A DNA stretch of 64,000 nt. It comes from an uncultured Candidatus Poseidoniales archaeon. Its GTDB lineage: Archaea; Thermoplasmatota; Poseidoniia; Poseidoniales; Thalassarchaeaceae. The stretch is taken from assembly GCA_902601345.1 (NCBI GenBank), contig CACKMK010000002.1, forward strand, positions 43,571 through 107,570, given 5' to 3'. A program made the position numbers and the translations under genes. The notes beneath the pieces were generated by a model, which saw only the letters and a program-made list of their open reading frames with translations, was not told the DNA's origin and ran no database searches. Positions 11,690-26,766 of the stretch are shown piece by piece. Within the stretch, counting starts at the first letter, position 1; every line of letters starts with the position of its first letter.

Positions 11690-12686
11690 TCAGGTATGAC
11701 AGAGGGTCTCCAAGAAGGAGCATTGGTAGTATTGCCAAGAAGAGGTAGACTAGAAATGGATGCTTGGTTGTTATCCAGACACTGTCCAAGCCCAATTCCT
11801 CGAGAAGCTCGAACTGCTTGTCCTTGTCATGGGCATTTGATAATCTCCTAGAGGGAAGTATCCGATCTACTGGACTCATCTCTCCGTTTTTCTCAATGAC
11901 CTCAGTCAGAATCCAAGATTGGTATGATTCAGAATCTGGGGCTTCCTTGAGATCTGAGATTCTTCTCTTCGTGGCGTGCCACGCCATCTTAAGATCTGAT
12001 AGTGAAGAAATATTGCCCCTCGCGGTGTTTTGAACGAAGATTATTGGTGGTGCAATCAGAAATGCAGCAGCGGCCCATATGAAGAGTACCATTGACGGGG
12101 GCATTCGGAATAGTGGGTCTTCCACCAGAGGGTACATCTGATCTGGCACGAATGCCCACGAGGGAAACACCAGAGTTACGAGAATCAGCGCCTTTACATC
12201 CGCTCCTCCTTGAATTAGCCCTATCCTCCATGAGCCATAGAAAATCGCAGAGGTCAGGAAAGCACCGTTCATACTCCACCAGAGAGTCGTTTCCTTTGAT
12301 TCATCGCCCAGAACCAAATCAACGAAATTTGTATCCGAGTAGACGTTCGCTCCGTACACGAATCCAACTAAACCCAGCGCATACACCACCGATAGGAGAG
12401 CCTGGTTTTGATTCCAATCCCTGAAATCTCGTGGATCCGGTGGGCCAGAGAAGCAGAAAGAATAGACTGCGACCAACGAGAATACCATGCATAGGTTGGC
12501 AATACCCATGTTCTCGGATACTATCTCCACCAAGAGGATGAGTACAACCGGGACAGACCATCTGACCCAGTGACTGTTCCTGACTGATAGTGTCTCCAAG
12601 TCTGAGCGTGCTGCAATGGCCATCATGATAGTTAGGGCCGAGATTCTCAGAGTGGACAGTAGGGGGTCGGCCACGATTGTTGACAA
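11682..12686 (-). CDS. flaK: A24-family preflagellin/prepilin peptidase (FlaK/PibD-like)
   Basis: 334-aa polytopic membrane protein. GGADVKALILVTLVF matches the conserved second catalytic Asp motif (GGxDVK) of type IV prepilin/preflagellin peptidases. Located at the distal end of the archaellum operon. Confidence 0.6.
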   Translation of the reverse strand: MSTIVADPLLSTLRISALTIMMAIAARSDLETLSVRNSHWVRWSVPVVLILLVEIVSENMGIANLCMVFSLVAVYSFCFSGPPDPRDFRDWNQNQALLSVVYALGLVGFVYGANVYSDTNFVDLVLGDESKETTLWWSMNGAFLTSAIFYGSWRIGLIQGGADVKALILVTLVFPSWAFVPDQMYPLVEDPLFRMPPSMVLFIWAAAAFLIAPPIIFVQNTARGNISSLSDLKMAWHATKRRISDLKEAPDSESYQSWILTEVIEKNGEMSPVDRILPSRRLSNAHDKDKQFELLEELGLDSVWITTKHPFLVYLFLAILPMLLLGDPLSYLIR

Positions 12687-12719
12687 ATGGCGAATGGCAT
12701 CAAGTCTTCTGCGCTATCG

Positions 12720-14522
12720 CTATGCTCCTGTCTGGAAAAGGCCCACTGACTGGTCCAGGATCCATGCGCTGAAGAAGTTCGCAAGACCTGCCACCCACAT
12801 CATCTGAATCATCTGTCCGAGGACCAGTGTGGTCCCGCCCCCTCTGATCCTAGCGGTTATGAGACCGAGAATGACAATTGAGATGACGATTAGGAAAGAT
12901 CCCATGTATTGGAAGACCCGGATATTCTGTTCAATCCCTCCTGTCTCTGCCAAAGCCGGTAACGCAACGTCTACGCCTCCGGCCGCGGTACCGACCTCAC
13001 CCGCTCCATCGACTAGTCCCTGAGCCACCGAAGCTATCGTCTCACCTAGACCGGCAATAATCGATGTAGTGATGTTGAGAGCGATAATCATCGCAATTAG
13101 GAGACCGTAGGAGACGCTCCTCATCACGTTGGCTGAAATCTGTCTCCTCTGCCTGAGCCCTAACAAACTAGTCGTACTCTGAGAGACCATGTCTCCAACC
13201 AGACCAGCCTCACCGGTGGAAGATGATCCCTCGATGAAAACCCTCGTGAACCTGGATACGAGCATTGAATTGTTGTCGGCTGCAAACCAATCCCATGAGT
13301 AGTCGCTGTCTATCCTCATGGACAGCCTCTTCTCAAGATTGGAGATTGAGTCGTCTAGGGCTCCGAAATCGATACCTGACAGCGCCTTTACCATGGCGCT
13401 GGGTTCCTGGGCCCTGGCTTGTGCAGTTCCTCCGAAGGCTCGAATGAACTCTGGGAAAGCGTCGTCCCTCCTTCTCACTCTTGTCTCCTCCTGAAGGGTT
13501 AGTAGGGCTGGTGCGAGCAGTGGCGACATCATAGCAGCAATCACCAGAAGTCCGAAGTAGTTCCACTGTTCGAACAGGATATCCGTCCCGTAGACAATGA
13601 AGACTGTGGAAATGAGTAATACCATTATCGTACCGAGTATGCCCGCAAAAATCCACGATCTACGCATGTCAATCGCCTGTTCTGTGTTGAATCCGTGTTT
13701 GGCGAAGAGGTCCTCGTCCGGAATAACCAGAGTGAATAGGTACCATGCTCCAATCTGTAGCAACGCGAAGAGTGTCCCCGTGAGGAGAACCCACCTCGCT
13801 CTTATTATCACCTCGAACGGATTCGATGTCTCCGCTCCCGTCTGGAAGAGTATGAGATGAAGGCCGGAAACCACTAGGAGAAGAAGCCCTGTTGTAGTCA
13901 GGGACACGAAGGTCTCCCTCAGAGTATCCAACTGCTCAAGCCTAGCATCGTAGATGGTGGTATAGGCCTGCTCGAAGGTCTCGTTCTCACTGGAGAAGAA
14001 CTCCCCGATTGGTTGCCCCACTTCCACGGAGAAGGCCATCCTGTCTAGGAAGTCGCTCCATATAGCCGACGGGCTCTGTCTTCCGACTATTCTTGCTGCC
14101 TCGGGTAGGTTAGTATGCCATTTGGTGACTAGGGTCTCTATCGCTTGGATCTCGTGAGCCAGTGCTCCGTAGTCACCCATCTCCTTCAGTACGTCGAACA
14201 TCCCCTTCTCGGCCGACTCTCCCATGGAAAGAATCCCCATCCTCGTCATGAACATGTGCATATCTTGCTCTATCTGGATTGCCTCTGCTGAAACCTGTGC
14301 CACCGGATAAGCAAGAGTGCCGGCAAAGGCCAGTGCCGGGAATAAGAGAATCATGAGTACTGCGGAAGGTCCCGTAATGACATCGCTCACGGTATACCAG
14401 ACTGCAATACCGGCGACTAGCCCCACTAAGGACACTGGCAGTGCGAAGAAAAGGAGGTAGTTCCTGAATGGCATTCCCAGACGGAGGAGTGCGATCTCCC
14501 ATGTGCTGGCCTTGTCCTCCAT
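12720..14522 (-). CDS. flaJ: Archaellum membrane platform protein FlaJ (TadC/GspF-like)
   Basis: 600-aa polytopic membrane protein immediately downstream of the FlaI ATPase. Size and operon position are typical of FlaJ. Confidence 0.7.
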   Translation of the reverse strand: MEDKASTWEIALLRLGMPFRNYLLFFALPVSLVGLVAGIAVWYTVSDVITGPSAVLMILLFPALAFAGTLAYPVAQVSAEAIQIEQDMHMFMTRMGILSMGESAEKGMFDVLKEMGDYGALAHEIQAIETLVTKWHTNLPEAARIVGRQSPSAIWSDFLDRMAFSVEVGQPIGEFFSSENETFEQAYTTIYDARLEQLDTLRETFVSLTTTGLLLLVVSGLHLILFQTGAETSNPFEVIIRARWVLLTGTLFALLQIGAWYLFTLVIPDEDLFAKHGFNTEQAIDMRRSWIFAGILGTIMVLLISTVFIVYGTDILFEQWNYFGLLVIAAMMSPLLAPALLTLQEETRVRRRDDAFPEFIRAFGGTAQARAQEPSAMVKALSGIDFGALDDSISNLEKRLSMRIDSDYSWDWFAADNNSMLVSRFTRVFIEGSSSTGEAGLVGDMVSQSTTSLLGLRQRRQISANVMRSVSYGLLIAMIIALNITTSIIAGLGETIASVAQGLVDGAGEVGTAAGGVDVALPALAETGGIEQNIRVFQYMGSFLIVISIVILGLITARIRGGGTTLVLGQMIQMMWVAGLANFFSAWILDQSVGLFQTGA

Positions 14523-14534
14523 ATGGAATCATTC

Positions 14535-16283
14535 CTAGTGATTGATTCCCGTCCAGGTCTCCAGTGCGGATGCAAACCTGTCCCAACCCTCTTTGTAGTA
14601 CACGTCTAATAAATCAAAAACGTCATCGTAGTGAGTTAGGTCTCTGTCGCACATCCTCTGGATGGCCTCTGTCCTTCTCTGCAACTCATCGTAGATGTCT
14701 CGCTTGCTCCGGAATCCCATCCTAGGGGCGATCTTGTTCTCCAGCATATCGGACTGGAACATCCCTCTGAAGTAGACCTCATCCGCCACTGGATCCCATT
14801 CGAACATATTTCTGGTGAGGATACCGTCAGCGGTCTTGTCGAATCCAATCACCTCGCTGACGCCGGTTATCCTCCTGGCTATACCCCCTCCTGGGGCTTC
14901 GACCACTTCCTGGAAGATTGCGAAGTTCAGGTTGTCGAAGAATCGGGCTGGGACGTTAATCGGGTCTCCTGTGAATCTCTGGATAAGCTTGACGATGTTA
15001 GAGGCGTGGAAGGTACCGACCACGGGGTGCCCTGTCTGCATAGCTTGGAAGGCGATTGCTCCCTCTACCCCCCTGATCTCCCCTATTATGATGTATCGGG
15101 GCCTGGATCTTAGTGCTGCCTTGAGCAGATCGAACATCTCCACTCTGGAGTCCTCATTCTTTGAGTCCCTGGTGATTAGCCTCTGCCATATTGTGTGAGC
15201 CACCTTGACCTCAGGAGTGTCCTCTGCTGTGTATATCTTGACATTGTGATCTATGAATGGGAGTACCGCGTTCAGCGTGGTGGTCTTTCCTGAGGCCGTC
15301 TCCCCCGAGACCAGCATGGACATCCCGGACTCCAGACCAAGCCAGATATATGCGGCCATCTGGGCGGATAGTGTCTTCCACTTGATCAACTGGATGATGG
15401 ATATGGTCTCCTCAGCGAACTTCCTTATCGTGAATGAAGAACCCTGGATAGAGACATCGTCGCTGTAGATTATGTTGATTCTAGAACCATCCAGCAGGGC
15501 ACCGTCGACAATCGGCTTGCTGTCAGATACTGGCCTCCCTATCCTTTCTGACATTGACCTCAGGTACTTGGTGAGAAGCTCCTGATCCCTGAATGCGATG
15601 TTTGAGGTAAGCATCGGGAAGACCTTGTGATCCATATTTATCCGAGATAGCCCGATCGAGTGAATATCCTCCAGCATCTCGTCGGCTAGAAGTGTCTCTA
15701 GAGGGCCGTTGTTAACTAGGTCCCTGACCACCACGTACTTGAGCCGATCGAGTTGTTCTGGTGTGACCTTGATTGGGGCCTCGCCCATGCCTATCAGTTC
15801 CCTTGCTTGGTTCACAACTGGATTGGAGAGAAGTGACGATGAAGTGGTGGTGGTCATCTCATCCATCATTTCGTGAATCATTGCGATGAATTCCTCGTCA
15901 TTGTCGAATCGCTCCTTCTGGGGAGCGTCTCTGAGGAGCCTTTCCACGATACGGTCCCTGATTTCGTCCTCCTCGTCTGTGATAGTTGGCTCTAGCCCGA
16001 ACCAGAAGGTGTTCCCTGCTCCTTCGGCTCCCTCAGGAGGGGAGTAGACATGTGCGAAGCAAGGAGGCTTTGTGGCGTAAATCAGGTTACGGGGGCTGAC
16101 GCTCTTCGCATCCCTGTCCAGAGGGCCATAGTAAATCGGCCTGGACCCGTGTTCTGCCTCGAACTGCTCGACCCATTCGCGGATATGTGGGTACTCGGCC
16201 ATGAGGCCACCGAGGTCGCCAGGCTCGATATTGAACTCTGGCTGTTTTCGGTCATCTTCGCTGGACTCTTGCTCGGTAACCAT
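14535..16283 (-). CDS. flaI: Archaellum ATPase FlaI (type II/IV secretion system ATPase family)
   Basis: 582 aa. Walker A is SGETASGKTTTLNAVLPF. YIIIGEIRGVEGAIAFQAMQTGHPVVGTFHASN matches the VirB11/FlaI His-box region. Confidence 0.85.
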   Translation of the reverse strand: MVTEQESSEDDRKQPEFNIEPGDLGGLMAEYPHIREWVEQFEAEHGSRPIYYGPLDRDAKSVSPRNLIYATKPPCFAHVYSPPEGAEGAGNTFWFGLEPTITDEEDEIRDRIVERLLRDAPQKERFDNDEEFIAMIHEMMDEMTTTTSSSLLSNPVVNQARELIGMGEAPIKVTPEQLDRLKYVVVRDLVNNGPLETLLADEMLEDIHSIGLSRINMDHKVFPMLTSNIAFRDQELLTKYLRSMSERIGRPVSDSKPIVDGALLDGSRINIIYSDDVSIQGSSFTIRKFAEETISIIQLIKWKTLSAQMAAYIWLGLESGMSMLVSGETASGKTTTLNAVLPFIDHNVKIYTAEDTPEVKVAHTIWQRLITRDSKNEDSRVEMFDLLKAALRSRPRYIIIGEIRGVEGAIAFQAMQTGHPVVGTFHASNIVKLIQRFTGDPINVPARFFDNLNFAIFQEVVEAPGGGIARRITGVSEVIGFDKTADGILTRNMFEWDPVADEVYFRGMFQSDMLENKIAPRMGFRSKRDIYDELQRRTEAIQRMCDRDLTHYDDVFDLLDVYYKEGWDRFASALETWTGINH

Positions 16284-16293
16284 TCAATCAACC

Positions 16294-16992
16294 TCATGCT
16301 ACAGCTGTGATATCCACGATGAATCCCATCTCGGGCATAACCTTCCATCCGATTCTCTCAGTCACTGGTCCCGCGGCTCGAAGGAATCGAGTGACGCTGA
16401 CGGTCCTGACAAGCTGTCCACCAACGACTGCGGTCATCATATCCAGCACGACCTCAGCGGAGTTCTTCATGTCCCTGAGGGTGTGGCTGTCCATCTCTTC
16501 GGGATCAATCGTCAATATCAGGGTACGACCCTCTGAGGTGAACTTCCGGAGAACCCTCAAAAGCTCCTTGCTCGACATATCATCTGGCATCAGCTCTGAG
16601 GCCCTGTCAATGATTACCACGTCTGCCTCCTTCGAGGCCGGTGACTCAAGTAGATTCAGCAGGGTTACTGGCTCTTCGGATGGTTCGGCAATGACTCCGA
16701 AGCTGGAAATCAGGTGGAATGATCCCTCGTCGATCCTCTTGTCCATGTAGTATCCGATGCTGGAAACCTGCTCAAGCCAGCCCCTCGTGGTTAGCTCGGT
16801 GGTGTATAGTGAGACTTTGACGTCGTTCGCTGTCATTCCGAATGACATTCGCTGTCCAATGATGCTCTTTCCGGAGCCAATGCCTCCGCAAACGAGCATC
16901 AGTGCCCTATTCGGGATGGCAGTCCCCATGCTCTGCCCCAGGCTGTCCTGGATTACCCCGAACTCGAAATTGTCGACGTTAGCTTGTGACAA
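16294..16992 (-). CDS. flaH: Archaellum protein FlaH (KaiC/RecA-like ATPase fold)
   Basis: 232 aa. Walker A is ALMLVCGGIGSGKSIIGQRM. KaiC-like architecture, located directly upstream of flaI. Confidence 0.7.
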   Translation of the reverse strand: MSQANVDNFEFGVIQDSLGQSMGTAIPNRALMLVCGGIGSGKSIIGQRMSFGMTANDVKVSLYTTELTTRGWLEQVSSIGYYMDKRIDEGSFHLISSFGVIAEPSEEPVTLLNLLESPASKEADVVIIDRASELMPDDMSSKELLRVLRKFTSEGRTLILTIDPEEMDSHTLRDMKNSAEVVLDMMTAVVGGQLVRTVSVTRFLRAAGPVTERIGWKVMPEMGFIVDITAVA

Positions 16993-17458
16993 GTCTTACT
17001 TCCTCCGAAACTGTGTATGCCCCAGCGTAACCCGTTGCAGTCGATACAACCGTTATTGTCATTATTACATCATTGGTGCCGGTGTAGCTGAGGGTATCGC
17101 TGGTATCGTCGACTGTGAACTGGACGATCTGCCCTTGTACCCAAGTCGTAGAACCGTCTGCGACTGACACGGTCATTGGGGTCCCCTCGATGTAGACTCC
17201 TATGGTTTCTAGGTCCAATTGCGTCTCGCCGGAATTCTGAATGTACAGTGTTGCCCTCTTCTCTGTGTCATCCCAACCTACATTGCTTGGGTCATTGACT
17301 AGGGATGCTCTGGTACGGACGTCCTCAGCGCCCTCCTTGCCCCTATCCTCGATTGCAGAGTCCATGTCCCCCCATGTGTCCAGGAGTACGCCTGAAACTA
17401 GGCCTGCTACTATCAACCCGGCAATGAGGAGAATGATCTCTGAGGGTCCGTTAGCCAT
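16979..17458 (-). CDS. FlaG-like archaellum protein (N-terminal TM anchor)
   Basis: 159 aa. N-terminal hydrophobic helix EIILLIAGLIVAGLVSGVLL is followed by a beta-rich soluble domain. Position between the FlaF-like gene and flaH matches the euryarchaeal flaF-flaG-flaH order. Confidence 0.4.
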   Translation of the reverse strand: MANGPSEIILLIAGLIVAGLVSGVLLDTWGDMDSAIEDRGKEGAEDVRTRASLVNDPSNVGWDDTEKRATLYIQNSGETQLDLETIGVYIEGTPMTVSVADGSTTWVQGQIVQFTVDDTSDTLSYTGTNDVIMTITVVSTATGYAGAYTVSEEVRLVTS

Positions 17459-17469
17459 CTATTCTCACC

Positions 17470-18234
17470 TCATGAAATTGTTACCGAAACCGCGTCGTTG
17501 TAGTCGTATATGGCTAGGAATGCCCTGTCTGGGTCTGCGTCTACAGAGAATCCATGGCTTGCCAAGGATAAAGGGAATGGCTCTGTGGATATCTCCTCAC
17601 CGGGGAAGAGGTACAGGTTTCCCCCGGTATAGTGGTCTGTGAACTGGAATGGTATGCCCTGTTGAATAGGGGAGGTGTCCGAGAGCGTAATCACCACGTG
17701 AGACAATTCAACCGTCTCTGAGCCTGTGTTGCTGATGGATATGGTATTCTGGTCCTCGATCGCTGTGATTGTGTAGGTGGCTGTTCCATCGGAGCCATCG
17801 GAGCCGCAGTCTATCGTCACGACCTCGGCAACGGCGTATCCGTTTCCTGGTACAAGGGTGGCACCGTTGTATCCATCAACCTCACCATCGCCATTAGCAT
17901 CGAGGATTTCGATAGTTGCCCCAGCGCCTGAGGAGCTGCTGACTAGGTCGCATGTTGTCCCTGAGATGTAGTCGCTGCCCCCGGAGTTTACTCCACCCGT
18001 CCAAGAAAGGGTGGAGACTGGCCCCGTTGACTCCTGCTTGTCAGTGACGCTCACTATCACGACCTCAGGGTCGGGTAGCTCGTAATCCGTGTTCTTGATC
18101 GACTCGTTGACGCTGTCGACCAGTGTGACGGTGGCCATTCCGAAGATCATTATGAAGACGGTGCCGACGACCATCGCAGCTACGCTAGAACCAGCCAATA
18201 CCCATCCCCCTATGGAGTCCCCTGGGCCCTCCAA
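17470..18234 (-). CDS. FlaF-like archaellum protein (N-terminal TM anchor, beta-sandwich)
   Basis: 254 aa. N-terminal TM segment is VAAMVVGTVFIMIFGMATVTL. G/S/T-rich beta-rich C-terminal part. Operon position assigns it to FlaF/FlaG. Longer than a typical FlaF. Confidence 0.4.
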   Translation of the reverse strand: MEGPGDSIGGWVLAGSSVAAMVVGTVFIMIFGMATVTLVDSVNESIKNTDYELPDPEVVIVSVTDKQESTGPVSTLSWTGGVNSGGSDYISGTTCDLVSSSSGAGATIEILDANGDGEVDGYNGATLVPGNGYAVAEVVTIDCGSDGSDGTATYTITAIEDQNTISISNTGSETVELSHVVITLSDTSPIQQGIPFQFTDHYTGGNLYLFPGEEISTEPFPLSLASHGFSVDADPDRAFLAIYDYNDAVSVTIS

Positions 18235-19028
18235 GCCTCGATCATCGCTGCGAAGGTCAGGAGCGTCCTGTTGTCAACCGCTGGTGCTCCCTCTGACTCT
18301 GCCCCGGCCTCTGCCAGCGCGGCGATTGAGCTCAGCGCCTTCTCCTCTGCCGCGGTGATCACTCCCGACTTGGAGGCGGCCTTTAGGAATCCCAGCGTGT
18401 CTGCCCCGCTCATGTTGTCGAGCAGAAGGGCTACTATCTTGGTGGGGTCAACTGACGGCCCGTGCATCAAGGCGTCTGCCTCCCCGCTCTTCAGGAAGGG
18501 GTTGACTGCCAAGGACTGGGCCTCGTAGAGGTCTAGGAGGCCCGGGCCTCCGGCCTTTCCACCGTGGGATAGAGGCCCTTCGACCTCGGACGCGGGAGAG
18601 TCTGCGGGTCGGCTAGTGACCTCTCCGTCATCGCCCACGGTGTGGATCACGTCCTGGGAAGCGCCTGCGGAGGCGCTAGCCGCAGATACCGAATCGGCTG
18701 CTATCTTCGCTGTCTGCTGGGCGGTCATCTTGATGTTGGCCTCCATCAGGTCCATTGCCGTCTCCAGCCTCTCGAACCTGTCCTTGACCATGTCCACCAG
18801 CTCCGGGATCTTGTCCTGCCCCTGGCTCGCCTGAGGGTCGCCGAGAACCCCGACCCTGGTCCCGGAGGGGGCGAAAAGCCACGCCTCTAGGTCCGTCGGC
18901 CTGAACTCGGTTGGGATGTCCACGTGCTCGACGCTTAGCCTGGCTACCTTGTCCAGCCTGGATGACATCCCGGGGTCGGCATCGGAGGAGCCACTAGAGC
19001 CAGACCTGAATTTGTCTAGTAATCCCAT
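18210..19028 (-). CDS. FlaC/FlaD/FlaE-family archaellum accessory protein (tentative)
   Basis: 272-aa soluble, Ala/Ser-rich protein. Sits between the archaellins and FlaF/G, where flaC/D/E genes occur in euryarchaeal fla operons. Assignment is by position only. Confidence 0.35.
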   Translation of the reverse strand: MGLLDKFRSGSSGSSDADPGMSSRLDKVARLSVEHVDIPTEFRPTDLEAWLFAPSGTRVGVLGDPQASQGQDKIPELVDMVKDRFERLETAMDLMEANIKMTAQQTAKIAADSVSAASASAGASQDVIHTVGDDGEVTSRPADSPASEVEGPLSHGGKAGGPGLLDLYEAQSLAVNPFLKSGEADALMHGPSVDPTKIVALLLDNMSGADTLGFLKAASKSGVITAAEEKALSSIAALAEAGAESEGAPAVDNRTLLTFAAMIEAWRAQGTP

Positions 19029-19078
19029 TCCAACACCTCATGATCCCACCTCGCAAGGCACCTCTAACCCTAAAGGTC

Positions 19079-19738
19079 TCACATCATCGAGGAGCCCAAA
19101 GTCAGGGAGTGTACTGTAAACTCCGTTAGGGTCTCTCCACCGCCGTCTACGACTATGCGCATGTTCAGTGTCTCACCTTGGGTTGCAGTGGTGTCGCAAC
19201 CTGGGTTGACATCATCTGTGTCCACATCACCGTCACTGTCAACGTCCGAGTTTCCTAGGGTAACCGTGGTGTAGTAGGTGTTTCCGGCCGACAGCTCGGT
19301 AGTGCCGGCTATTGGAGTCTCGGTGATTATGCTGGATGCTGGGAGGGTTCCGTCGTCGAACCCGAGACCCAGTCCGGTGTGAGCGCTGAGATCGCACGTG
19401 ATATAGTAGGAGACGTCACCCGGGTAGATGCCGGTTGAACCGGACGATACCCTCCATACGACGTCGAACGTAGCCACGTGGCTTCCTGCTCCTATGTCGT
19501 CAGCGATGGTATTCACAATCAAGTCCGTGAGCGCGACCTTACCGGATATCTGCTGTCTGGTGTCGCTGCTGGTCTGCTCTGCGTTCTGCTGTAGCTCTTC
19601 GGCGGTCTTGATGATGATCGTCGAAGCAACTGCGGCCACTAGGATCAGGGCGATGAAGACGATCATCGCACCGATACCGATTGAGCCCGAGTCCTCTTTG
19701 TCCCTTGGAATTCTCTCGTTCATGCTATCGCCTCCCAT
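19079..19738 (-). CDS. flaB: Archaellin (FlaB), class III signal peptide
   Basis: 219 aa. DSGSIGIGAMIVFIALILVAAVASTIIIKTAEELQQNAEQ matches the archaellin N-terminal consensus (G-IGTLIVFIAMVLVAAVA). The C-terminus is a variable Thr/Asp-rich beta domain. Confidence 0.8.
   Translation of the reverse strand: MGGDSMNERIPRDKEDSGSIGIGAMIVFIALILVAAVASTIIIKTAEELQQNAEQTSSDTRQQISGKVALTDLIVNTIADDIGAGSHVATFDVVWRVSSGSTGIYPGDVSYYITCDLSAHTGLGLGFDDGTLPASSIITETPIAGTTELSAGNTYYTTVTLGNSDVDSDGDVDTDDVNPGCDTTATQGETLNMRIVVDGGGETLTEFTVHSLTLGSSMM
19560..19681. repeat. 122-bp perfect direct repeat, copy A (5' coding region of archaellin)
   Basis: gtgtcgctgctggtctgctctgcgttctgctgtagctcttcggcggtcttgatgatgatcgtcgaagcaactgcggccactaggatcagggcgatgaagacgatcatcgcaccgataccgat recurs identically at 20205-20326. 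Confidence 0.9.
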
Positions 19739-20374
19739 CTAAACCACCGATGCCCCCGAGGTTAGTGAGTCTATCTTCAGTTCTGTAACGGTCGTGCCAC
19801 CATCGGTTACGATGATCTTGAGGAGCATCGTCTCGCCGATTCCGCCTAGGGCGTCGCAGTCCCCTCCGTTGGTTATTATGTCGAAGCGGAATACGGTTCC
19901 AGCGTCCATCTCAAGGGACCCGAAGTCGGAGCCGTCGAGGTTGTCCGCGTTCTGTGACTCTGTTCCGTCGATGGTGCCACCTTCAGCATCGGTTCCCCCT
20001 AGTGCGGAGGTGCCGAGGTTACCTGCTACGAGCCCGTAGCTTGCACTGTCACCGCATGTGAGGAGCCAGTTGATGTTCTGGGCAACCAGGTTCTGGGCTC
20101 CAGCGGCGACCTTGGCCGTGAAGACCATGCTCTCGACGTCGGTCGCGCTCGATGTGTTCACCAGCGCCTGTACGATGTTGATCTTCCCGGAAATCTCCTT
20201 CCTCGTGTCGCTGCTGGTCTGCTCTGCGTTCTGCTGTAGCTCTTCGGCGGTCTTGATGATGATCGTCGAAGCAACTGCGGCCACTAGGATCAGGGCGATG
20301 AAGACGATCATCGCACCGATACCGATGGAGCCTTCCTCTCGGTTTCTTTCTACTGTCTGGTATTCTTCGCTCAT
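19739..20374 (-). CDS. flaB: Archaellin (FlaB), class III signal peptide, paralogue
   Basis: 211 aa. The N-terminal ~50 residues are near-identical to the downstream archaellin (EGSIGIGAMIVFIALILVAAVASTIIIKTAEELQQNAEQTSSDTR). C-terminal domain is divergent. Confidence 0.8.
   Translation of the reverse strand: MSEEYQTVERNREEGSIGIGAMIVFIALILVAAVASTIIIKTAEELQQNAEQTSSDTRKEISGKINIVQALVNTSSATDVESMVFTAKVAAGAQNLVAQNINWLLTCGDSASYGLVAGNLGTSALGGTDAEGGTIDGTESQNADNLDGSDFGSLEMDAGTVFRFDIITNGGDCDALGGIGETMLLKIIVTDGGTTVTELKIDSLTSGASVV
20205..20326. repeat. 122-bp perfect direct repeat, copy B (5' coding region of archaellin)
   Basis: Identical to 19560-19681 by eye. Divergence starts one nucleotide after each end. 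Confidence 0.9.
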
Positions 20375-20462: not shown

Positions 20463-21506
20463 TTAGCTACCGATTCCTACTGCTTCTCGCAGGTTCAGTA
20501 CCTCGATGGGAACGTGAACGACATCCCCTGGTCCAAGGTTCTCCACGAGTGGGAGCCTCATCGTCTCGAATCCCTCTGGCATCCATGGATCCAACAGGAG
20601 ACCCTGCATGATGTTCGGAGTCCTGTTTTCTACCCTGGTCTGGACATTCAGGCTACCGTACTCGACGTCATATCCGGTGGTGATGTTCAGGCTGCTTCCA
20701 AGGAGTGCTGTGGATGGGAAGGATCCGGATGGCCTGATCTCGATCCCGATCTCGATGAAGCCATCTGGGGGTATCTCGGGAATCTCGCACATCTTCGGAG
20801 TGGCAGACCACCCGTACGGTATTGGCGGGGCAAGCCTCATTGTGGAGATGTTGTTCTCGCCGGTGTTCTCTAGTGTAATTACCATCAGGGCGTGGTCCTT
20901 GCCCTCTGGCCATGTCGTCCCTATAGAAAGGAAGAAGCTGTTCACTAGGAAGGGGCTGGCAGCCTCGTTGACAGCGACTGGGCCGAGTGCGCTGATTGCG
21001 TCCTCGAACGCCTTTGCCGCGGACGAGAGGTCGGAGTCGAGTGCCTCCTTACCCTGGTTGACCAGCGTGAGTGCGATGTCCTCTATGTCGCTGAGCTCAC
21101 CCATCTCGTTGAGGTGCCTTCCAAGGGTGTTCAGTGACCTCTCGAGTCCGTCTTTGCCCATCGATGCGACTGCGCCCTCTACGCAATCTGCTGCTGCTCC
21201 CCAGTTCCCCTCCCTGAGGTGCTGCAGGCCTAGCATTGTCAGGTCCCAGGCGTTGCGATCGCCTTCTGACATCTGCTCGAGCTCCTCGAGGGATCGCTCT
21301 AGCGATGATAGCGCCCTGTAGAGGTCCATGATCTGTCCTTCTGCCTCTTCGACCTCCTTCGATAGGTCTCTCAGCATCTTTCTGGCGCCTATAGGCCTGT
21401 TTGCCCAGATTGCGAATTGGATGTTCTCGGCCTCTTCCTCGATGTAGTCGATCCGCTTGAGAGTGGCCTCGGCCCCTCCCGTTGCGGGTGCCTTCGTCCG
21501 TGCCAT
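20463..21506 (-). CDS. Hypothetical protein, archaellum-operon associated (helical N-terminal half, beta-rich C-terminal half)
   Basis: 347 aa. No family recognised by eye. Start codon lies 2 nt from the stop of the giant surface protein gene and directly upstream of flaB, which suggests co-transcription. Confidence 0.5.
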   Translation of the reverse strand: MARTKAPATGGAEATLKRIDYIEEEAENIQFAIWANRPIGARKMLRDLSKEVEEAEGQIMDLYRALSSLERSLEELEQMSEGDRNAWDLTMLGLQHLREGNWGAAADCVEGAVASMGKDGLERSLNTLGRHLNEMGELSDIEDIALTLVNQGKEALDSDLSSAAKAFEDAISALGPVAVNEAASPFLVNSFFLSIGTTWPEGKDHALMVITLENTGENNISTMRLAPPIPYGWSATPKMCEIPEIPPDGFIEIGIEIRPSGSFPSTALLGSSLNITTGYDVEYGSLNVQTRVENRTPNIMQGLLLDPWMPEGFETMRLPLVENLGPGDVVHVPIEVLNLREAVGIGS

Positions 21507-21507
21507 C

Positions 21508-24500
21508 TCAGTTCCTCCCTCCTGGCTTCTGACCTGCCCTTCCGAGGATCTTCTTGATTCTGATAGCTCGGAGCTCTATATCAGCGAGTTCGCTGTAAAG
21601 CCTGTCGTAAGAGCTGTCCAGGAATTTCAGGATGATGTGCACTAGGATGGGCGAGGCGATCATGAATCCGATTATGGATATCAACGACGATGCCCCCAGA
21701 TCTATGGCGAGGGATGGTGAGATTAGTACGAATGGAAGGAAGGCGTAGGGAGAGCAGGAGATGATGGCGCGGAGCTCGTTCCTAGTGTTCTGCTGTTCCT
21801 TGTCGTGATCCTCCAACAGCGCCATCGTTCCGATTCTGGCCTTCTTCCTGTCGTCATGGATCGCCTGGAGCTCGCTGGAGGATAGCCATGCTACAAGCCC
21901 TGCGAACAAGATGGAGGCTAGAGCGCAAAGAAGTGATAGGATCGTGGAGGCGCCGGTTAGCGAGAGGGCCCCGAATGCCATTGCTGCCACGTACGAGGAC
22001 GCATGCAGGCGGCTCTCTTGCTCTTCCAGTCCCTGTCTGATGAGCGATACCGCCAAGAGGAGTAGGAGTGCTGCGATTAGAAGTGCGGACGGGAGTTGCA
22101 GACCGGATAGTTCGACGGCTGGGGTGGACCATGAGTCAATGGACAGGTCCTCCGTCCTGACGTCATTTTCTACGACGTTGCCGAAGATTCCGCCCATCTG
22201 CATTATGATGTCCGGATAGGTGATGGATGCGGAGCAAGTCAGTGTCTCTGAGGACTTGTACCATGGGATTGGGTTTAGTTCCACGGCCCAGGAAGCAGTG
22301 AAGTTCCCGTTTGCCTCAAGAGCTGGTATCGGGTACGATGCGAACATGTTCGTCACGTCTGCGTAAGGCGTGGGAGTGCAGTCGAGGTTCAGTTGGGACT
22401 GTGTTGGCATTACTGCGTATCCTGCGTTAATTACGGTAACGTCGATCCAAGTGCTCTCCCCCTCTACGCCCTCCCCCCTGAATGTGATGCTGTTGACGAG
22501 GGGATCCGTCGATTCTGTCATCCTGAGTCTGACGACTAGATCCGTCGAGTACTCCGTTGTCTTGGGCTCCTCTGGGTGTCTTAGTTGCAGGTAGATGTTC
22601 CATCCGTCTCCCGCTGCAACCCCGTCCAGCTGCTTCTCGGGGATAATTACCTGGAGTACGATTGTGCCCCCGTGAGCGGAGTCTGGGCTCCCTCCCTCAT
22701 AGGGAGTGGTGGCGTCGAGTTCCCAATCCGAGTTGCATGTCTCTTCCGTCGCGTCCGTGGCGGCGATACCGAATCCATCTATGTCTGCTAGTTCGCACTT
22801 CGCAGTACCTGCATCGGTGTCGTGATCGATGTATAGCCACCAATGCACCTTGGGGTAGCTGGCTGAGTCCACGAGGCGTTCTGGGGGGTCTGCTGATGCA
22901 TCGTAGGGGTCCATATCCCCGTTCAATGCCAGTGTGTAGGACCTCGGGTCGAATGAGCTGTCTCGGTAGTTTATGTCCACCCATGGTATCTCTATCTGCC
23001 TGCAATTCGGGTCGTCGTTGTTTTCGCACTGGTACTGGCCGGCGGCATCGGCGCTCAAGGTGTAAGTGTCATCGGTCTGGGCTCTGACGACGGTGATTGG
23101 GAAGGAGTTCTGCTGGGTCTCCATCGCGGCGTCCACTGGTACTCTCTTCAGGATGAATGTTCCTTGCTCGCCCTTGATCGTGTCATTATGTGTCATTGCG
23201 AATTCGAAGCTAATTGAGCTGGTCTGCCCAACCTGCAGGTACAGGTTTGTAGAGCCTAGCGAGTTTCGGACTTCGAACCTATCTGGCTTCGAATCGTCCT
23301 GTTCCGTGTCTATGGTTTCCCACTGTATTGTGAGGTTGATCGGTGCGTTGCCCTTGTTCTCCATTTCGAATTCGATTGACCTGTCCACCCCTGGGACTAT
23401 TGCTATCCTCTGTGGGGACTTGGTCAATTCCACATCGAAGACGGGGAGGACCTTGATTTTGAGCGTCGAAGTCCCAGCTGGGACGCCCCCACCCATTGCG
23501 ACCCTCTCTGACAATGGAACGGGCTGGGCCACTCCATCGACCATTTTTGTTGCAGGCCATGTGGGGAACGGGTCGGTGATGTTTACCGCTCTCATGGTTA
23601 GGTTGTGGATGACGTCGGCTACGAGAATCTGGTCTCCGTCCCTGAGAGGGGGCAGTGTGATGCTGAGGAGTACGGTACGAGACTCATACTGGTCTAGTGA
23701 GAATCCGGATTCGTTGACCTGGTAAGACCAGTTGGTCATTCCCTCTGGGAAGGTCACAGTCAAGTTCAGTGTCTCCATGAGGTTGCCGTCGTTCCGTAAA
23801 ACCACCTCTAGGTCGAGGGTGTTCCCCGGGGCTACCTGCATTTCGGTGGGAGCTATGAATAGTATTGCATGGTCAGGAGCAACCTGAACCTTCCATTCGC
23901 TTGTGGACATTAACTGGCCGTCGTGAGACGCATTCAGGAAGAAAGTCTGGTTTTCATCTGCTCTCGAGTCCTCTCCAGCAGTGGAGTAAATCCTGACGAT
24001 TCCCTGCGACCCTGCCGGGACCAACAGTGTGGATTCGGTCACACAGGGCTGCATCTCCTCAGAGAAGCAGACCCTGATCTTGTCGACATCGAGATTGTCC
24101 AGGGACAGGTTGTATGTGACGTTCTTGTTTCCTGTGTTATTGAGCAGGGCAATCAGGGTCTTCTGGCCGACTCTGCTGTCCAATGAGGGGGAAGGGGTGA
24201 TTACCGCCGTGGAAGTAGGGGGGTAGAGTTCTGCCGAGATGACTTCGGTGAGGGTGAAGAGGGCAGGGGCATATGCAAGCAGTTCTCCAGTTTCCGTGGA
24301 GTTGGCGTACACCCAGACCTGATGTGTCTCATCCGCTCTGGCTGAGGCCGGGGGAGTGGCGGTGACCGTTATTGGCCGCTGATTCTGGGTTGATGAACCG
24401 TCATTGTACAGATTCGTCATGGAGGGTACGAGGTTCGCCGCGGTGGACCCCAGGGTGATGGTCCATCCAGGCTTAGGGACGTATCCGATGGTGAAGTTTG

Positions 24501-26703
24501 CTGGATCGTTCCCTGTGTTCTCCAAAACCACCTCAGAGGATATGGGGGTCCCAGGGTCCCCATTGGCTGCTCCTGAGGAAGTCAGCTCTGCCGACCAGAG
24601 TTCTGCTATTGACATGGAAACCGTGGCTGTGGCATTACGGGAAATTGCCCCGGAGAAAGCAGCCCAAGATGATGTCGCCATGAACGAGAAGTTGAGGTGA
24701 CCCGCCGATGGGTATTGGAAGTCTGGGGTGGGGCCGAAGCTCAGTCCCACCATTCCGTATCCGGTTTCTCCTGGCAGGAGTTCCAAGGTCGAGGCGGAGG
24801 ATGAGGAAGAGGTCTGGACCGTAGCCGTCCAACGCGAATTCTCGATGAGGCTGGAGCCAGCCGGGGTATCCTGAAGAAAGACCTTCCCATTGCTACAGGT
24901 GGATTGCGTCCAAGGGCTACCCGATGCAGCAGTGGTTGGCGCTAGGGAGGTACACGGCATGGCGCTGAGGGATACTTGGGCCAAGGTGTTGTTTGAGCCG
25001 AGATTGTGAACTATCGTCACTTCGAAGCCGACGAACCTGTCGGTATTGCCCCCGATGATGTCATTGACTGAAATATCATCGATTTCACTGGTCACGGAGA
25101 TGTCCAACTCAACAATGCTGTCTATCATTAGCGTCGTCTGGTTGACTGCTGGGACTCCCCCCTGTAGGGGGATTGCTTGGACCATCAGATCCACTCTTTC
25201 TATGGAGGAGACCTTCCAGGACGGGTTCAGTGGCATCTCTAGCTCCGGGGTGGTGATTGTTACGGGAAGTGTCCTGGTCTCATTTGGCAGCAGTACGTCG
25301 GTGATTGTGACAGGTGAGTCTATGATCCAGTACGGCACCGATTCCGTCGCTCCGACATCTATCTGATACTGGGCTGGTGCGGTACCGGTGTTCATCAGGG
25401 TGTATTGTAGGGTCCTGGGGGAACCGGGGGTGATGTTCGCGAAGTTTTCTCCCATCGAATGGCTGTGGTTTTGGAAAATCTCCGCGCTGAATGTACCTCC
25501 TGCCATGACCATTGTGCTGGCTGAGAGGACGTAACCCGCCGTGTCGCTTTGAATTGTTAGGGTCACAATTACGGCGTCTCCATTGGCGGCATCCGCGGGA
25601 ACATCGACCGGGATCTGAATTGCATGGGTTTGCTGGGCGCCTACATTGAGAAGGTTGGTGGAGGAATGTATCTGATCCGTGATATTTACCCAGTAGTTGG
25701 CGGGGTCGGAGTTGTTGCTCTGTGTCACGGTGAAGTTGTCCTCAACGGTTCCAGAGTTCTGTAGTATGAAGTTCAGAGTTGCCTGCGAACCTGGGTCGAC
25801 GTTCCGGTTGTTGGCTGGTATTAGCGATGCCCTTAGGGCTACGAAGCTCACTATTCTGGAGTCGATTGTGACCGAGCCCTGTGTAGAGCCCGACACAAGT
25901 ATGCTACCACTAAGGGTGTAATCTCCTTCAAGTCCGGAGCCATCGAACGATATTGTGATATTAGCAGGGGTTGGAGGATCTGCAAGGCTTCCGGGAAGCA
26001 ATTCTTCTGTACTCGAGGAGAGGGGGACGCTCGAACCACCCAGCGACGGAGTTAGTGTTAGCTGGGCTGTGACGTCGACTGGTTGATTGCCCGTGTTGAC
26101 CACGGTGATTGCTCCTTCCCAGAGTGCTCTCGCTAGGGAAGACCCATCGGATGGTAGGGAGTCTGCGATGTCTGAGGCAGACTCCACCTCAGCGACGCTT
26201 ACACCGGATAGAGACATCTGGTTATTGCTCGAGTCCGAGTCGGAGGATGATGATGCCGGGATCCATGACGCAGTTATCTCATATCCTGTTCCTGAGAGGG
26301 AAGAGGCGTCCCAGTACATCACGCTGTTTACCTGTCCTCCAGGAGTGATGGTGGCAGTCCTGTTGTCAACGACGACCCCGTTAACCTTGAGCGTTACATT
26401 GCCTTCGGCAGTAGACCCGCCCTGATTGGTAGTCCCGACAACAATCACGTGATCAACAGGAGCCAGTGTGGGGGTTCCTCCAACCGTAGCGGAGGGTGTG
26501 GTGACGTCTAGATCGGTTACTACCACATCTGGGCCCATTTGACGAGTCGAGCTTGGCATTGGGTTCTCTTCGTCTGTAGCAACGGGAATACCAGCGAGCA
26601 GGGGGGAGAGGAAAAGTAGAGCGACTAGAATCGTGGCCTTGCTAGCCGTTCTAGTTGTCCTATGTAGGTTTCTTGAGGATTCTTGACTGGAATCTTTCAG
26701 CAT
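21508..26703 (-). CDS. Giant secreted cell-surface protein (1731 aa): N-terminal CARDB-like domain, many beta-sandwich repeats, C-terminal multi-TM anchor
   Basis: N-terminal signal peptide/TM is ATILVALLFLSPLLAGIPVA. VVVTDLDVTTPSATVGGTPTLA...GNVTLKVNGVVVD...SDSDSSNNQMS resembles a CARDB domain (ending E.NE.NN). Long Thr/Ser/Asn-rich beta-repeat body with NxT/S sequons. The C-terminal ~250 aa hold about four hydrophobic helices (LIAALLLLLAVSLI, AAMAFGALSLTGASTILSLLCALASILFAGLVAWL, FLPFVLISPSLAIDLGASSLISIIGFMIASPILVHIIL). Confidence 0.6.
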   Translation of the reverse strand: MLKDSSQESSRNLHRTTRTASKATILVALLFLSPLLAGIPVATDEENPMPSSTRQMGPDVVVTDLDVTTPSATVGGTPTLAPVDHVIVVGTTNQGGSTAEGNVTLKVNGVVVDNRTATITPGGQVNSVMYWDASSLSGTGYEITASWIPASSSSDSDSSNNQMSLSGVSVAEVESASDIADSLPSDGSSLARALWEGAITVVNTGNQPVDVTAQLTLTPSLGGSSVPLSSSTEELLPGSLADPPTPANITISFDGSGLEGDYTLSGSILVSGSTQGSVTIDSRIVSFVALRASLIPANNRNVDPGSQATLNFILQNSGTVEDNFTVTQSNNSDPANYWVNITDQIHSSTNLLNVGAQQTHAIQIPVDVPADAANGDAVIVTLTIQSDTAGYVLSASTMVMAGGTFSAEIFQNHSHSMGENFANITPGSPRTLQYTLMNTGTAPAQYQIDVGATESVPYWIIDSPVTITDVLLPNETRTLPVTITTPELEMPLNPSWKVSSIERVDLMVQAIPLQGGVPAVNQTTLMIDSIVELDISVTSEIDDISVNDIIGGNTDRFVGFEVTIVHNLGSNNTLAQVSLSAMPCTSLAPTTAASGSPWTQSTCSNGKVFLQDTPAGSSLIENSRWTATVQTSSSSSASTLELLPGETGYGMVGLSFGPTPDFQYPSAGHLNFSFMATSSWAAFSGAISRNATATVSMSIAELWSAELTSSGAANGDPGTPISSEVVLENTGNDPANFTIGYVPKPGWTITLGSTAANLVPSMTNLYNDGSSTQNQRPITVTATPPASARADETHQVWVYANSTETGELLAYAPALFTLTEVISAELYPPTSTAVITPSPSLDSRVGQKTLIALLNNTGNKNVTYNLSLDNLDVDKIRVCFSEEMQPCVTESTLLVPAGSQGIVRIYSTAGEDSRADENQTFFLNASHDGQLMSTSEWKVQVAPDHAILFIAPTEMQVAPGNTLDLEVVLRNDGNLMETLNLTVTFPEGMTNWSYQVNESGFSLDQYESRTVLLSITLPPLRDGDQILVADVIHNLTMRAVNITDPFPTWPATKMVDGVAQPVPLSERVAMGGGVPAGTSTLKIKVLPVFDVELTKSPQRIAIVPGVDRSIEFEMENKGNAPINLTIQWETIDTEQDDSKPDRFEVRNSLGSTNLYLQVGQTSSISFEFAMTHNDTIKGEQGTFILKRVPVDAAMETQQNSFPITVVRAQTDDTYTLSADAAGQYQCENNDDPNCRQIEIPWVDINYRDSSFDPRSYTLALNGDMDPYDASADPPERLVDSASYPKVHWWLYIDHDTDAGTAKCELADIDGFGIAATDATEETCNSDWELDATTPYEGGSPDSAHGGTIVLQVIIPEKQLDGVAAGDGWNIYLQLRHPEEPKTTEYSTDLVVRLRMTESTDPLVNSITFRGEGVEGESTWIDVTVINAGYAVMPTQSQLNLDCTPTPYADVTNMFASYPIPALEANGNFTASWAVELNPIPWYKSSETLTCSASITYPDIIMQMGGIFGNVVENDVRTEDLSIDSWSTPAVELSGLQLPSALLIAALLLLLAVSLIRQGLEEQESRLHASSYVAAMAFGALSLTGASTILSLLCALASILFAGLVAWLSSSELQAIHDDRKKARIGTMALLEDHDKEQQNTRNELRAIISCSPYAFLPFVLISPSLAIDLGASSLISIIGFMIASPILVHIILKFLDSSYDRLYSELADIELRAIRIKKILGRAGQKPGGRN

Positions 26704-26766
26704 CGCTTCCGCTCCCCTCCTCGTAGAGGAGACTAACCTTCATTATGAAATAACCGGAGGAAATAA

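Follow-up and report, generated by a model that had tools for sequence, protein, structure and literature searches.

A giant surface protein with a predicted five-helix membrane anchor heads the archaellum locus of Poseidoniales

A giant gene is found first in the archaellum operon of Poseidoniales (Marine Group II, MGII), and this position, conserved across the order, suggests that its product is probably an unrecognized part of, or partner to, the archaellum apparatus. We analysed the gene in a window of 64,000 nucleotides, the whole stretch of DNA under study, from an uncultured member of the order. As judged by homology searches, the gene appears common to the whole order and its family restricted to it. 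Database annotations of the protein have so far read only 'hypothetical' or 'uncharacterized membrane protein', a description of the gene was not found in the literature searched, and the MGII operon drawn by Tully (2019) contains unannotated orthologous hypotheticals only.

The genes of the locus (Table 1) follow the same order, giant, p347, arlB, p272, p254 and then arlG, arlH, arlI and arlJ, in all 47 GTDB species loci, and also in a divergent locus (L053) with different flanking genes. The giant is never away from arl genes in any of these. An earlier note, made on the window, had placed the gene at the head of a motility operon; the archaellum gene matches downstream confirm this, and the invariance of the synteny across the order makes the link to motility much stronger than that note could know. 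A faint FlaC_arch signal in p272 (E 0.039) is the only one in the locus, and the assignment of p272 as ArlC was rejected because the match occurs in 2 of 12 members and is sub-threshold.

Table 1. Coordinates of the giant gene, its parts and the archaellum locus in the window (res, residues of the giant protein; TM, transmembrane; AF2, AlphaFold2)
Feature	Position	Strand	Description or basis
Giant gene, arl locus head	21508..26703	(-)	Intact ORF, 1731 aa
Giant promoter and leader	26704..26761	(-)	TATA-like TTTCATAAT; palindrome CTCCTC-TAC-GAGGAG with Shine-Dalgarno inside
Export signal or signal-anchor, res 1-44	26572..26703	(-)	Basic n-region, then hydrophobic ATILVALLFLSPLLAGIPVA
Ectodomain, res 45-1536 (~1490 aa)	22096..26571	(-)	Pfam matches, repeat motif, sequons, Cys, charge
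C-terminal membrane module, res 1537-1731	21511..22095	(-)	Five predicted TM helices, N-out/C-in; hydropathy, AF2, positive-inside
Predicted cytoplasmic TM3-TM4 loop, res 1608-1646	21766..21882	(-)	Most conserved stretch; E1611, H1616, D1618, G1625, H1633
Predicted C-terminal cytoplasmic amphipathic helix and basic tail, res 1696-1731	21511..21618	(-)	AF2, conserved motif
p347	20463..21506	(-)	Partner gene, translational coupling to giant; predicted cytoplasmic protein
Archaellum locus remainder, overall	11682..20374	(-)	Gene order same in species loci and L053
arlB	19739-20374	(-)	Pfam Arch_flagellin
Second arlB	19079-19738	(-)	Pfam Arch_flagellin
p272	18210-19028	(-)	Archaellum locus gene
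ArlF-like p254	17470-18234	(-)	Archaellum locus gene
arlG	16979-17458	(-)	Archaellum locus gene
arlH	16294-16992	(-)	Pfam KaiC-type ATPase
arlI	14535-16283	(-)	Pfam T2SSE
arlJ	12720-14522	(-)	Pfam T2SSF
A24-type prepilin peptidase-like gene	11682-12686	(-)	Pfam Arc_PepC_II

The giant ORF begins with an ATG that is preceded by a GGAGG ribosome-binding site. Its protein has 72 full-length homologues (1571-1736 aa, 33-100% identity, 94-100% coverage) and 2 shorter partial ones, and both length and collinearity are kept down to 33% identity. Among 47 species-level genomes, which include both Poseidoniales families, the giant is the same uninterrupted ORF, of 1425-1746 aa in each species locus with contig coverage, and a genome scan found one copy per genome. 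The ratio dN/dS is 0.07-0.11 for the ectodomain, 0.04-0.12 for the membrane module and 0.20-0.34 for archaellin. With a dN/dS of about 0.1, below that of archaellin, the ectodomain shows strong purifying selection.

The membrane module comprises a C-terminal cluster of hydrophobic segments that, by hydropathy, is confined to residues 1537-1697. An AlphaFold2 model of residues 1517-1731, which is of moderate confidence (pLDDT 76.8, pTM 0.68), contains helices at 1539-1555 (TM1), 1568-1582 (TM2), 1587-1607 (TM3), 1647-1662 (TM4) and 1671-1695 (TM5); TM3 and TM4 are joined by a charged loop of 39 residues (1608-1646), and an amphipathic helix follows TM5. With 15 residues, TM2 is short, and its hydrophobicity is weak. 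Each of the two predicted outside loops has no Lys or Arg, rarely one, across 24 diverse members, and the predicted inside loops carry 1-4 and 4-9 and the tail 3-11. This distribution is the positive-inside pattern and argues for a five-helix topology with the N-terminus outside and the C-terminus inside, which these counts suggest is shared by all 24. The earlier note was right that the anchor is C-terminal and polytopic, and a single C-terminal helix, which it named as grounds for abandoning the idea, is not what the predictions give; however, its 'about four' helices become five, and its ~250 residues of membrane region shrink to ~195.

No relatives of the module were found by Pfam, NCBIfam, PDB sequence or PDB fold searches, and in a set of 1.84 billion representative proteins it was seen solely as the C-terminal end of giants or in giant fragments. 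To judge from these searches, the five-helix anchor appears to be previously undescribed. Conserved positions within the membrane are Y1571, G1578, W1606 and I1647 (24 diverse members), and no charged residue inside any TM helix is conserved family-wide.

The most constrained parts of the giant appear, from the alignments, to be the predicted cytoplasmic loop and the C-terminal amphipathic helix. Mean identity in residues 1601-1650 is 70%, compared with 26-63% in the ectodomain. Of the loop residues, E1611, D1618, G1625 and H1633 do not vary in any of 24 diverse members and H1616 is shared by 23 of them; the invariant charged residues of the module all lie within this loop. In the model, the last helix runs on beyond TM5 (1671-1724), and it carries the conserved motif LD.SY..Y..L..EL.A..I. 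The basic tail described in the earlier note is a trait of the window's clade; in divergent members of the Poseidoniaceae type, the tail is long and acidic.

The N-terminus of the giant is predicted to be a Sec-type export signal. A single hydrophobic segment (residues 24-42, by hydropathy) follows a basic n-region, and homologues begin MKKKAILLVAIMIIS..., as in a typical Sec signal whose h-region is short. A class III (prepilin-type) signal peptide, defined by a charged residue and a G/A cleavage site followed by a retained hydrophobic helix of at least about 20 residues, seems less likely. Although the motif (K/R)-A-(A/I/T)-I-L is present, in many homologues the hydrophobic stretch spans just ~11-12 residues (MKKKAILLVAIMIISTTPYS) and contains Pro, which is closer to a Sec signal.

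The ectodomain appears to consist of about ten divergent CARDB/Ig-like beta-sandwich repeats. An x-L-x-N-x-G motif occurs ten times at a spacing of 110-130 residues, and internal similarity is weak. The region near the membrane (about residues 1200-1400) is rich in Cys and Asp, and Cys positions suggest five probable disulfide pairs in the ectodomain. The ectodomain is acidic (175 D+E versus 59 K+R), and the protein contains 10.6% Thr, 10.4% Ser and 28 N-x-S/T sequons, where shuffled sequences give 17.1 +/- 3.7 sequons (p about 0.006). Homologues keep many of the sequons. These results, together with hydropathy, the model and the Lys/Arg counts, uphold the earlier proposal of an exported, Thr/Ser-rich ectodomain of many beta-sandwiches and many sequons on a polytopic anchor, with a size nearer ~1490 aa than the ~1450 aa first given.

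The assignment to CARDB, also made in the earlier note, appears to hold at the level of the beta-sandwich group. The giant itself matches Pfam FixG_C (30.4 bits, cut-off 25.6) and Ig_VWA7 (29.3 bits, cut-off 27), but CARDB (PF07705) does not match it at E<0.1. Among 29 homologues, matches are to Ig_VWA7 (17), FixG_C (15), CARDB (11, at E<=1e-3), HYDIN-Ig (10) and NPCBM_assoc (9). The repeats belong to the same group as the CARDB, NPCBM_assoc, FixG_C and Ig_VWA7 families, which are generic building blocks and uninformative on the membrane module or on function. Choice-of-anchor T (NF041740) scores 40 bits (E 2.4e-10), below its curated cut-off of 70 bits, over three short ectodomain stretches, a resemblance at the domain level only. 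A full-length giant profile found nothing relevant among PDB chain sequences at E<=1.

The p347 gene is the constant partner of the giant. A coiled-coil/Ig-like protein of 281-378 aa abuts or overlaps the giant in all loci (47 species); the junction is TGA-1 nt-ATG in the window, and in distant loci the two genes overlap by 4 nt or 8 nt. AlphaFold2 (pLDDT 65.7) predicts a helical/coiled-coil N-domain (residues 11-173) and an Ig-like beta-sandwich (191-334), and the translated sequence has no signal peptide and no TM helix. A fold search returned generic Ig-like matches only, and 7 of 17 homologues match NPCBM_assoc weakly. Homologue searches found the p347 family solely in the giant/arl context, and profile-profile comparison indicates that p347 and p272 are unrelated.

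The leader of the giant gene is near-invariant across 27 loci, whose giants go down to about 45% identity with the window protein. The element occurs once in the window and corresponds to no Rfam family. An AT-rich spacer of 88 nt separates the giant-p347 pair from arlB. With its own promoter and leader and this spacer, the pair may be a separate transcription unit, a point against its belonging to the archaellum apparatus. A promoter box (ATWTCATAA) common to the regions upstream of the giant and of the first arlB was considered and dropped, since its 2 matches compare with 0.8 expected and are not significant.

There is, in our estimate, about an even chance that the giant is a structural accessory specific to Poseidoniales, spanning the envelope as a scaffold or anchor for the archaellum/adhesion apparatus. 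The ectodomain would be a fixed extracellular scaffold, perhaps an S-layer-like patch used by the ArlF/G stator or at the filament exit site, a particle binder, or both. ArlF/G have to be anchored on the outside, and Thermoplasmatales without an S-layer may rely on a layer of glycoprotein (PMC12448462). On the inside, the conserved cytoplasmic face of the giant might dock p347, and the giant might reach the ArlH/I/J motor via p347 or directly; the invariant E/H/D/H set could hold a metal ion or form a docking interface. We infer a physical link to the motor or to p347 from gene order, coupling and conservation. Together, the giant and p347 would tie the motor to the envelope, a task that elsewhere in archaea falls to ArlX or ArlCDE inside and the S-layer outside. 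The adhesion-and-motility coupler proposed in the earlier note would be a reasonable reading of such a protein. A bolder form of the scaffold/anchor reading, which we regard as speculative, is that the giant and p347 constitute a new motor component, which would provide its own scaffold for ArlF/G and clamp ArlH/I/J via an invariant, possibly metal-binding cytoplasmic loop and p347, and would replace both S-layer anchoring and ArlX/ArlCDE in these archaea, the most abundant Euryarchaeota of the plankton.

Comparable proteins are found in other archaellum or type IV pilus (T4P) loci. Methanococcales (arCOG05057) and Thermococcales encode S-layer-like multi-Ig proteins, proposed to be local S-layer adaptors, within their archaellum loci (bioRxiv 10.64898/2026.04.22.720090), and Pyrobaculum T4P loci encode S-layer-like proteins that have a TM domain at the C-terminus (bioRxiv 10.64898/2026.04.22.720090; PMC4858521). 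With its Ig-like domains, the giant is likewise a multi-Ig secreted protein within an arl locus (47 species). It can be likened, by description only, to the arCOG05057-type proteins, in that both are large secreted Ig-like chains in an archaellum/T4P locus with a C-terminal anchor. In contrast to the archaellum/T4P-locus proteins, the giant has, in place of a single TM helix, a conserved five-helix module that carries an invariant motif on its cytoplasmic side, heads its locus, is translationally coupled to a predicted cytoplasmic coiled-coil protein and appears confined to Poseidoniales.

ArlX (Thermoproteota) and ArlC/D/E (Euryarchaeota) are lineage-specific, fast-diverging proteins that join the ArlH/I/J motor to the membrane or cytoplasm. 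No ArlCDE or ArlX is known in MGII. The module and the coiled-coil p347 may resemble a split version of ArlX's TM anchor plus coiled coil; however, ArlX lacks an ectodomain and has a single TM helix, at its N-terminus. Neither the giant nor p347 has a match to FlaC_arch or Arch_fla_DE in Pfam or to any archaellum NCBIfam model, and no sequence relation of the giant to ArlX/ArlCDE or to solved S-layer proteins was found. With the MotA/MotB (PomA/PomB) stator, the giant shares only the idea of a membrane protein by which a rotary motor is held to a rigid layer outside the cell; the module lacks sequence or fold similarity and a conserved intramembrane Asp (PomAB at E 3.3, TM-score 0.14).

Alternately, the giant might be a plain adhesin for particles or algal surfaces, co-located and co-regulated with the archaellum, whose module is a robust anchor with no link to the motor. 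Such a role would suit the multi-Ig/CARDB ectodomain, which is typical of adhesins, and the promoter-like leader of the gene, and adhesion has been proposed as the role of MGII archaella, in cells without chemotaxis genes (PMC6461757; PMC6864105). However, a mere anchor would leave unexplained both the most conserved stretch, the cytoplasmic loop with its invariant E/D/G/H, and the conserved translational coupling to a predicted cytoplasmic protein. Strong purifying selection, to a ratio below that of archaellin, and the fixed length and domain order of the ectodomain are more in keeping with a structural role than with an adhesin that evolves fast, and the gene was never found apart from arl genes in the loci examined. 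We therefore consider the adhesin reading rather unlikely.

Euryarchaeal S-layer glycoproteins, such as Csg of Haloferax volcanii, are attached by a single C-terminal TM helix or a PGF-CTERM/archaeosortase anchor, which comprises a PGF motif, a hydrophobic helix and a short basic tail. Like the giant, Csg-type proteins are Sec-exported, acidic, N-glycosylation-rich Ig-like chains with C-terminal membrane attachment, and this likeness, along with the strong purifying selection, invites the view that the giant is a general S-layer or cell-envelope protein that neighbours the arl genes by chance. This seems improbable. Instead of exactly one helix, the 195-residue module of the giant has five, along with two long segments in the cytoplasm, and no PGF motif precedes TM1, where LPSALLIAALLLLLAVSLI stands instead. 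No solved S-layer protein was found at E<=1 with the full-length profile, and S-layer genes are usually monocistronic, very highly expressed and uncoupled from a cytoplasmic partner. Furthermore, the giant occurs only beside arl genes, even in the lineage with different flanks, and the arl operon is missing from about half of Thalassarchaeaceae genera (PMC6461757).

The earlier note had suggested that the module could be a channel or a signalling domain, and one could imagine a transmembrane sensor whose ectodomain detects contact or ligands and whose module signals or conducts ions, as a means of archaellum control where chemotaxis genes are absent. The polytopic module with conserved cytoplasmic elements might fit this role, and the invariant E/H/D/H motif might bind a metal or act in catalysis. 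However, the searches described above gave no match to a known domain or fold for signalling or transport, the loop is just 39 residues long, and the five-helix monomer has no evident pore. The conserved intrahelical charge and the fold match looked for in an ion-conducting stator or channel of the MotB or ExbD type are both absent, and without a charged or polar intrahelical residue conserved family-wide a channel is unsupported. We consider a sensor or channel very improbable. Finally, an artefact, whether a fused or frameshifted call or a chance ORF with the module as a separate gene, is next to inconceivable given the single ORF in 47 species and a dN/dS far below 1. The short module-only proteins in databases were traced to the ends of contigs, to a 100-N scaffold gap and to a frameshifted long-read assembly.

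Marine Group II are among the most abundant archaea of the surface ocean and are uncultured, and whether their archaella serve for swimming or for particle attachment is debated. The archaellum is ATP-driven, and how its motor resists its own torque is an open question, above all where no S-layer is known. The giant and p347 provide a concrete candidate for the anchor or adhesion link that is missing in MGII, and residues E1611, H1616, D1618 and H1633, together with the conserved leader, offer defined targets for tests of this role.

The giant gene encodes an exported, sequon-rich multi-Ig ectodomain and a conserved five-helix membrane anchor that, in the predicted topology, presents a highly constrained cytoplasmic face. 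A GGAGG ribosome-binding site stands ahead of its ATG start codon. By Kyte-Doolittle hydropathy, one hydrophobic segment lies at the N-terminus, behind a Lys/Arg-rich stretch, and the remainder are confined to residues 1537-1697. A protein search yields 72 homologues (identity 33-100%), nearly all full-length (1571-1736 aa, coverage 94-100%). Scanning one genome for each GTDB species located the gene in 47 loci, all titled Marine Group II (MGII)/Poseidoniales or with broader archaeal names (Euryarchaeota, Methanobacteriota, Thermoplasmatota). According to database names, the query clade includes Candidatus Thalassarchaeaceae (MGIIb), and a divergent clade includes Candidatus Poseidoniaceae (MGIIa). 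All family members are annotated as "hypothetical" or "uncharacterized membrane protein".

Coordinates of the giant gene, its protein segments (res, residues; transmembrane (TM) and other helices from the AlphaFold2 model and hydropathy) and neighbouring features of the window
Feature	Position	Strand	Remark
Giant gene	21508-26703	-	single uninterrupted ORF, 1731 codons
N-terminal hydrophobic segment	res 24-42		
TM1	res 1539-1555		
TM2	res 1568-1582		
TM3	res 1587-1607		
Charged helical hairpin	res 1608-1646		
TM4	res 1647-1662		
TM5	res 1671-1695		
Amphipathic helix	to res 1724		extension of TM5
p347 gene	20463-21506	-	347-aa partner
Archaellin-to-arlH segment	16294-20374		
Archaellum locus including giant gene	14001-26000		G+C 0.52-0.59 (flanks 0.45-0.50); AT skew strongly negative
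A24-type prepilin-peptidase-like gene	11682-12686	-	at arl-locus end; convergent with DP2
DNA polymerase D large subunit (DP2) gene	7757-11689	+	3' end overlapped 8 bases by A24-type gene
Leader	26704-26761	-	about 58 nt ahead of giant ATG
415-aa ORF	26767-28014	+	divergent; bacterial pre-peptidase C-terminal (PPC) domain
651-aa protein	35150-37105	+	Eco57I-type restriction-modification methylase domain; similar gene near locus L002

The ectodomain spans ~1490 residues between the hydrophobic ends, slightly more than the ~1450 proposed in the earlier note, and is Thr/Ser-rich as described there (Thr 10.6%, Ser 10.4%). It is strongly acidic (175 Asp+Glu versus 59 Lys+Arg), and its ten Cys lie in five close pairs. 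The many N-x-S/T sequons also noted earlier number 28, where shuffling at constant composition gives 17.1 +/- 3.7 (p about 0.006); 20 or more of 28 homologues retain 11 of them. The CARDB/beta-sandwich assignment is right at the superfamily level, because Ig-like Pfam models match and a CARDB-like x-L-x-N-x-G motif recurs (residues 91, 201, 314, 436, 565, 727, 854, 969, 1114 and 1424), but CARDB itself is unmatched in the query. There, Pfam finds only Ig-like models, each barely over its cut-off (FixG_C, 30.4 bits; Ig_VWA7, 29.3 bits); matches in 29 homologues are to Ig_VWA7 (17), FixG_C (15), CARDB (11), HYDIN-type Ig (10), NPCBM_assoc (9) and fn3_5 (6). Segments separating the motif sites are weakly similar to one another, and a full-length family profile found no solved structure related by sequence.

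The C-terminal module was modeled with AlphaFold2 (residues 1517-1731, 20 sequences; pLDDT 76.8, pTM 0.68). The polytopic C-terminus anticipated by the earlier note is borne out, but with five predicted helices rather than about four, and its estimate of ~250 residues, although close, is corrected to the last ~195. Among 24 diverse members, the predicted outward loops (TM2/3 and TM4/5) are essentially devoid of Lys/Arg, whereas the TM1/2 loop carries 1-4, the TM3/4 loop 4-9 and the tail 3-11. With the ectodomain outside, this distribution therefore predicts an N-out/C-in topology. The expected basic tail holds for the query clade, where it is short, but not for divergent members. These Poseidoniaceae-type proteins (for example, P0121, P0135 and P0118) instead have long, extremely acidic tails that reach 136 residues and 63 Asp/Glu, and they also keep a GDPARLL motif. 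A module profile searched against 1.84 billion representative proteins gave 39 matches, all giants of 1385-1696 aa with the module C-terminal, or fragments of such giants. Short module-only proteins were rejected as stand-alone modules, as they reflect contig ends, a 100-N scaffold gap in the gene or a frameshift-ridden long-read assembly. The window matches MAG REDSEA-S42_B7 at 97% identity at the module level.

Mean identity to the query across nine diverse homologues is 26-63% in the ectodomain and 70% in residues 1601-1650. Residues E1611, D1618, G1625, H1633 and P1663 are invariant in 24 family-wide members, and H1616 is present in 23; all except P1663 sit in the predicted cytoplasmic TM3/TM4 loop.

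As the earlier note stated, the giant gene is first in the arl gene order of the window: giant, p347, two archaellins, p272, ArlF-like p254, ArlG, ArlH, ArlI, ArlJ and the A24-type peptidase, all on the same strand. This order recurs in every species locus with sufficient flank and in metagenomic contigs carrying distant giant homologues. Divergent member P0134 (locus L053) keeps the arl order amid different flanking genes, which ties the giant gene to the arl genes rather than to the neighbourhood. In loci with the giant gene, its association with the arl locus and p347 is obligatory across the order. Relative to the window, locus L009, from a close relative, has dS of 1.0-2.0 for arlB1, p272 and arlH, but 0.22-0.30 for the giant gene, p347, arlI and arlJ. 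By this contrast, the archaellin-to-arlH segment resembles a cassette that was recombined or replaced within an otherwise near-identical locus, and the arlF/arlG identities (56-58%) agree with this.

The p347 ATG lies one base after the TGA of the giant gene, and the two overlap by 4 or 8 bases in distant loci, so their translational coupling is conserved. No signal peptide or TM helix was found in p347. Its model (pLDDT 65.7) comprises a helical N-domain (11-173) and a beta-sandwich (191-334) that matches generic Ig-like domains; NPCBM_assoc matches weakly in 7/17 homologues. Among homologues found, p347 is restricted to the position after the giant gene. It represents an undescribed family, predicted to combine a cytoplasmic helical/coiled-coil domain with an Ig-like beta-sandwich. 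A linker motif, SPFLVN, is invariant in the family, which also has an RVENRT motif. A relationship to p272, which has the sole faint FlaC_arch signal in the locus, was rejected on comparison.

The leader (CCGGTTrTTTCATAAT..GGTTAGTCTCCTCTACGAGGAGGGGAGCGGAAGCG) occurs once in the window and is nearly invariant in 27 loci (L002-L033), with giants down to about 45% identity to the window protein; DNA further upstream and the giant's first codons are variable. Within it are a TATA-like box and the palindrome CTCCTC-TAC-GAGGAG, which is perfect and encloses the Shine-Dalgarno sequence. A hairpin of -12.8 kcal/mol is predicted for the 53-nt leader, no Rfam match was found, and the element could be a regulator operator or a leader that sequesters the Shine-Dalgarno sequence. 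The divergent 415-aa ORF, a conserved neighbour in MGIIb loci, probably starts at the conserved ATGAAAAG, slightly downstream of the listed TTG.

Pairwise Nei-Gojobori dN/dS against close relatives is 0.07-0.11 for the ectodomain, 0.04-0.12 for the module, 0.03-0.05 for p347, 0.01-0.02 for ArlI and 0.20-0.34 for archaellin ArlB1. The exposed giant is therefore under tighter constraint than the filament subunit, and its length and domain order are maintained even at 33% identity. Diversifying adhesins usually look different, and the pattern fits a structural part. A plain adhesin merely co-located with the arl genes is thus a doubtful reading, although chemotaxis genes are absent from MGII and a role in adhesion has been proposed for their archaella (PMC6461757; PMC6864105).

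In kind, the giant is an archaellum-locus S-layer-like Ig-domain surface protein, an association already known: Methanococcales and Thermococcales have S-layer-like multi-Ig proteins encoded in their archaellum loci (bioRxiv 10.64898/2026.04.22.720090; PMC4858521), and arCOG05057 is alike by description. The MGII operon has been drawn with unannotated orthologous genes that are not described (Tully 2019; PMC6336850). A general S-layer protein is improbable. The giant shares the S-layer-like Ig architecture, but its five predicted helices differ from single-pass anchored S-layer proteins. It likewise lacks the defining features of PGF-CTERM proteins, ArlX/ArlCDE and choice-of-anchor T. A sensor or channel could draw on the polytopic module, but is quite improbable; 24 members spanning the family have no family-wide conserved charge inside a TM helix, and the defining features of ion-conducting stators are absent. 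An artefactual gene is scarcely conceivable: wherever the contig reaches in the GTDB species loci, the module ends a single ORF of 1425-1746 codons, and the frameshift that, by the earlier note, would make the membrane region a separate gene is not seen.

ArlF/G are thought to require anchoring from outside, which the S-layer normally provides; in Thermoplasmatales without an S-layer, a glycoprotein layer may be used (PMC12448462). We give an even chance to the giant being a scaffold or anchor. The cytoplasmic loop and C-terminal helix would dock p347, the motor or both, and the ectodomain would serve outside the cell as a fixed scaffold or an adhesive surface, so that the giant and p347 might jointly tie the motor to the envelope. 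New to this kind of protein are the polytopic anchor without relatives, the invariant cytoplasmic E/H/D/H loop, and the conserved coupling with a coiled-coil/Ig-like protein of the cytoplasm, along with conservation across the order.
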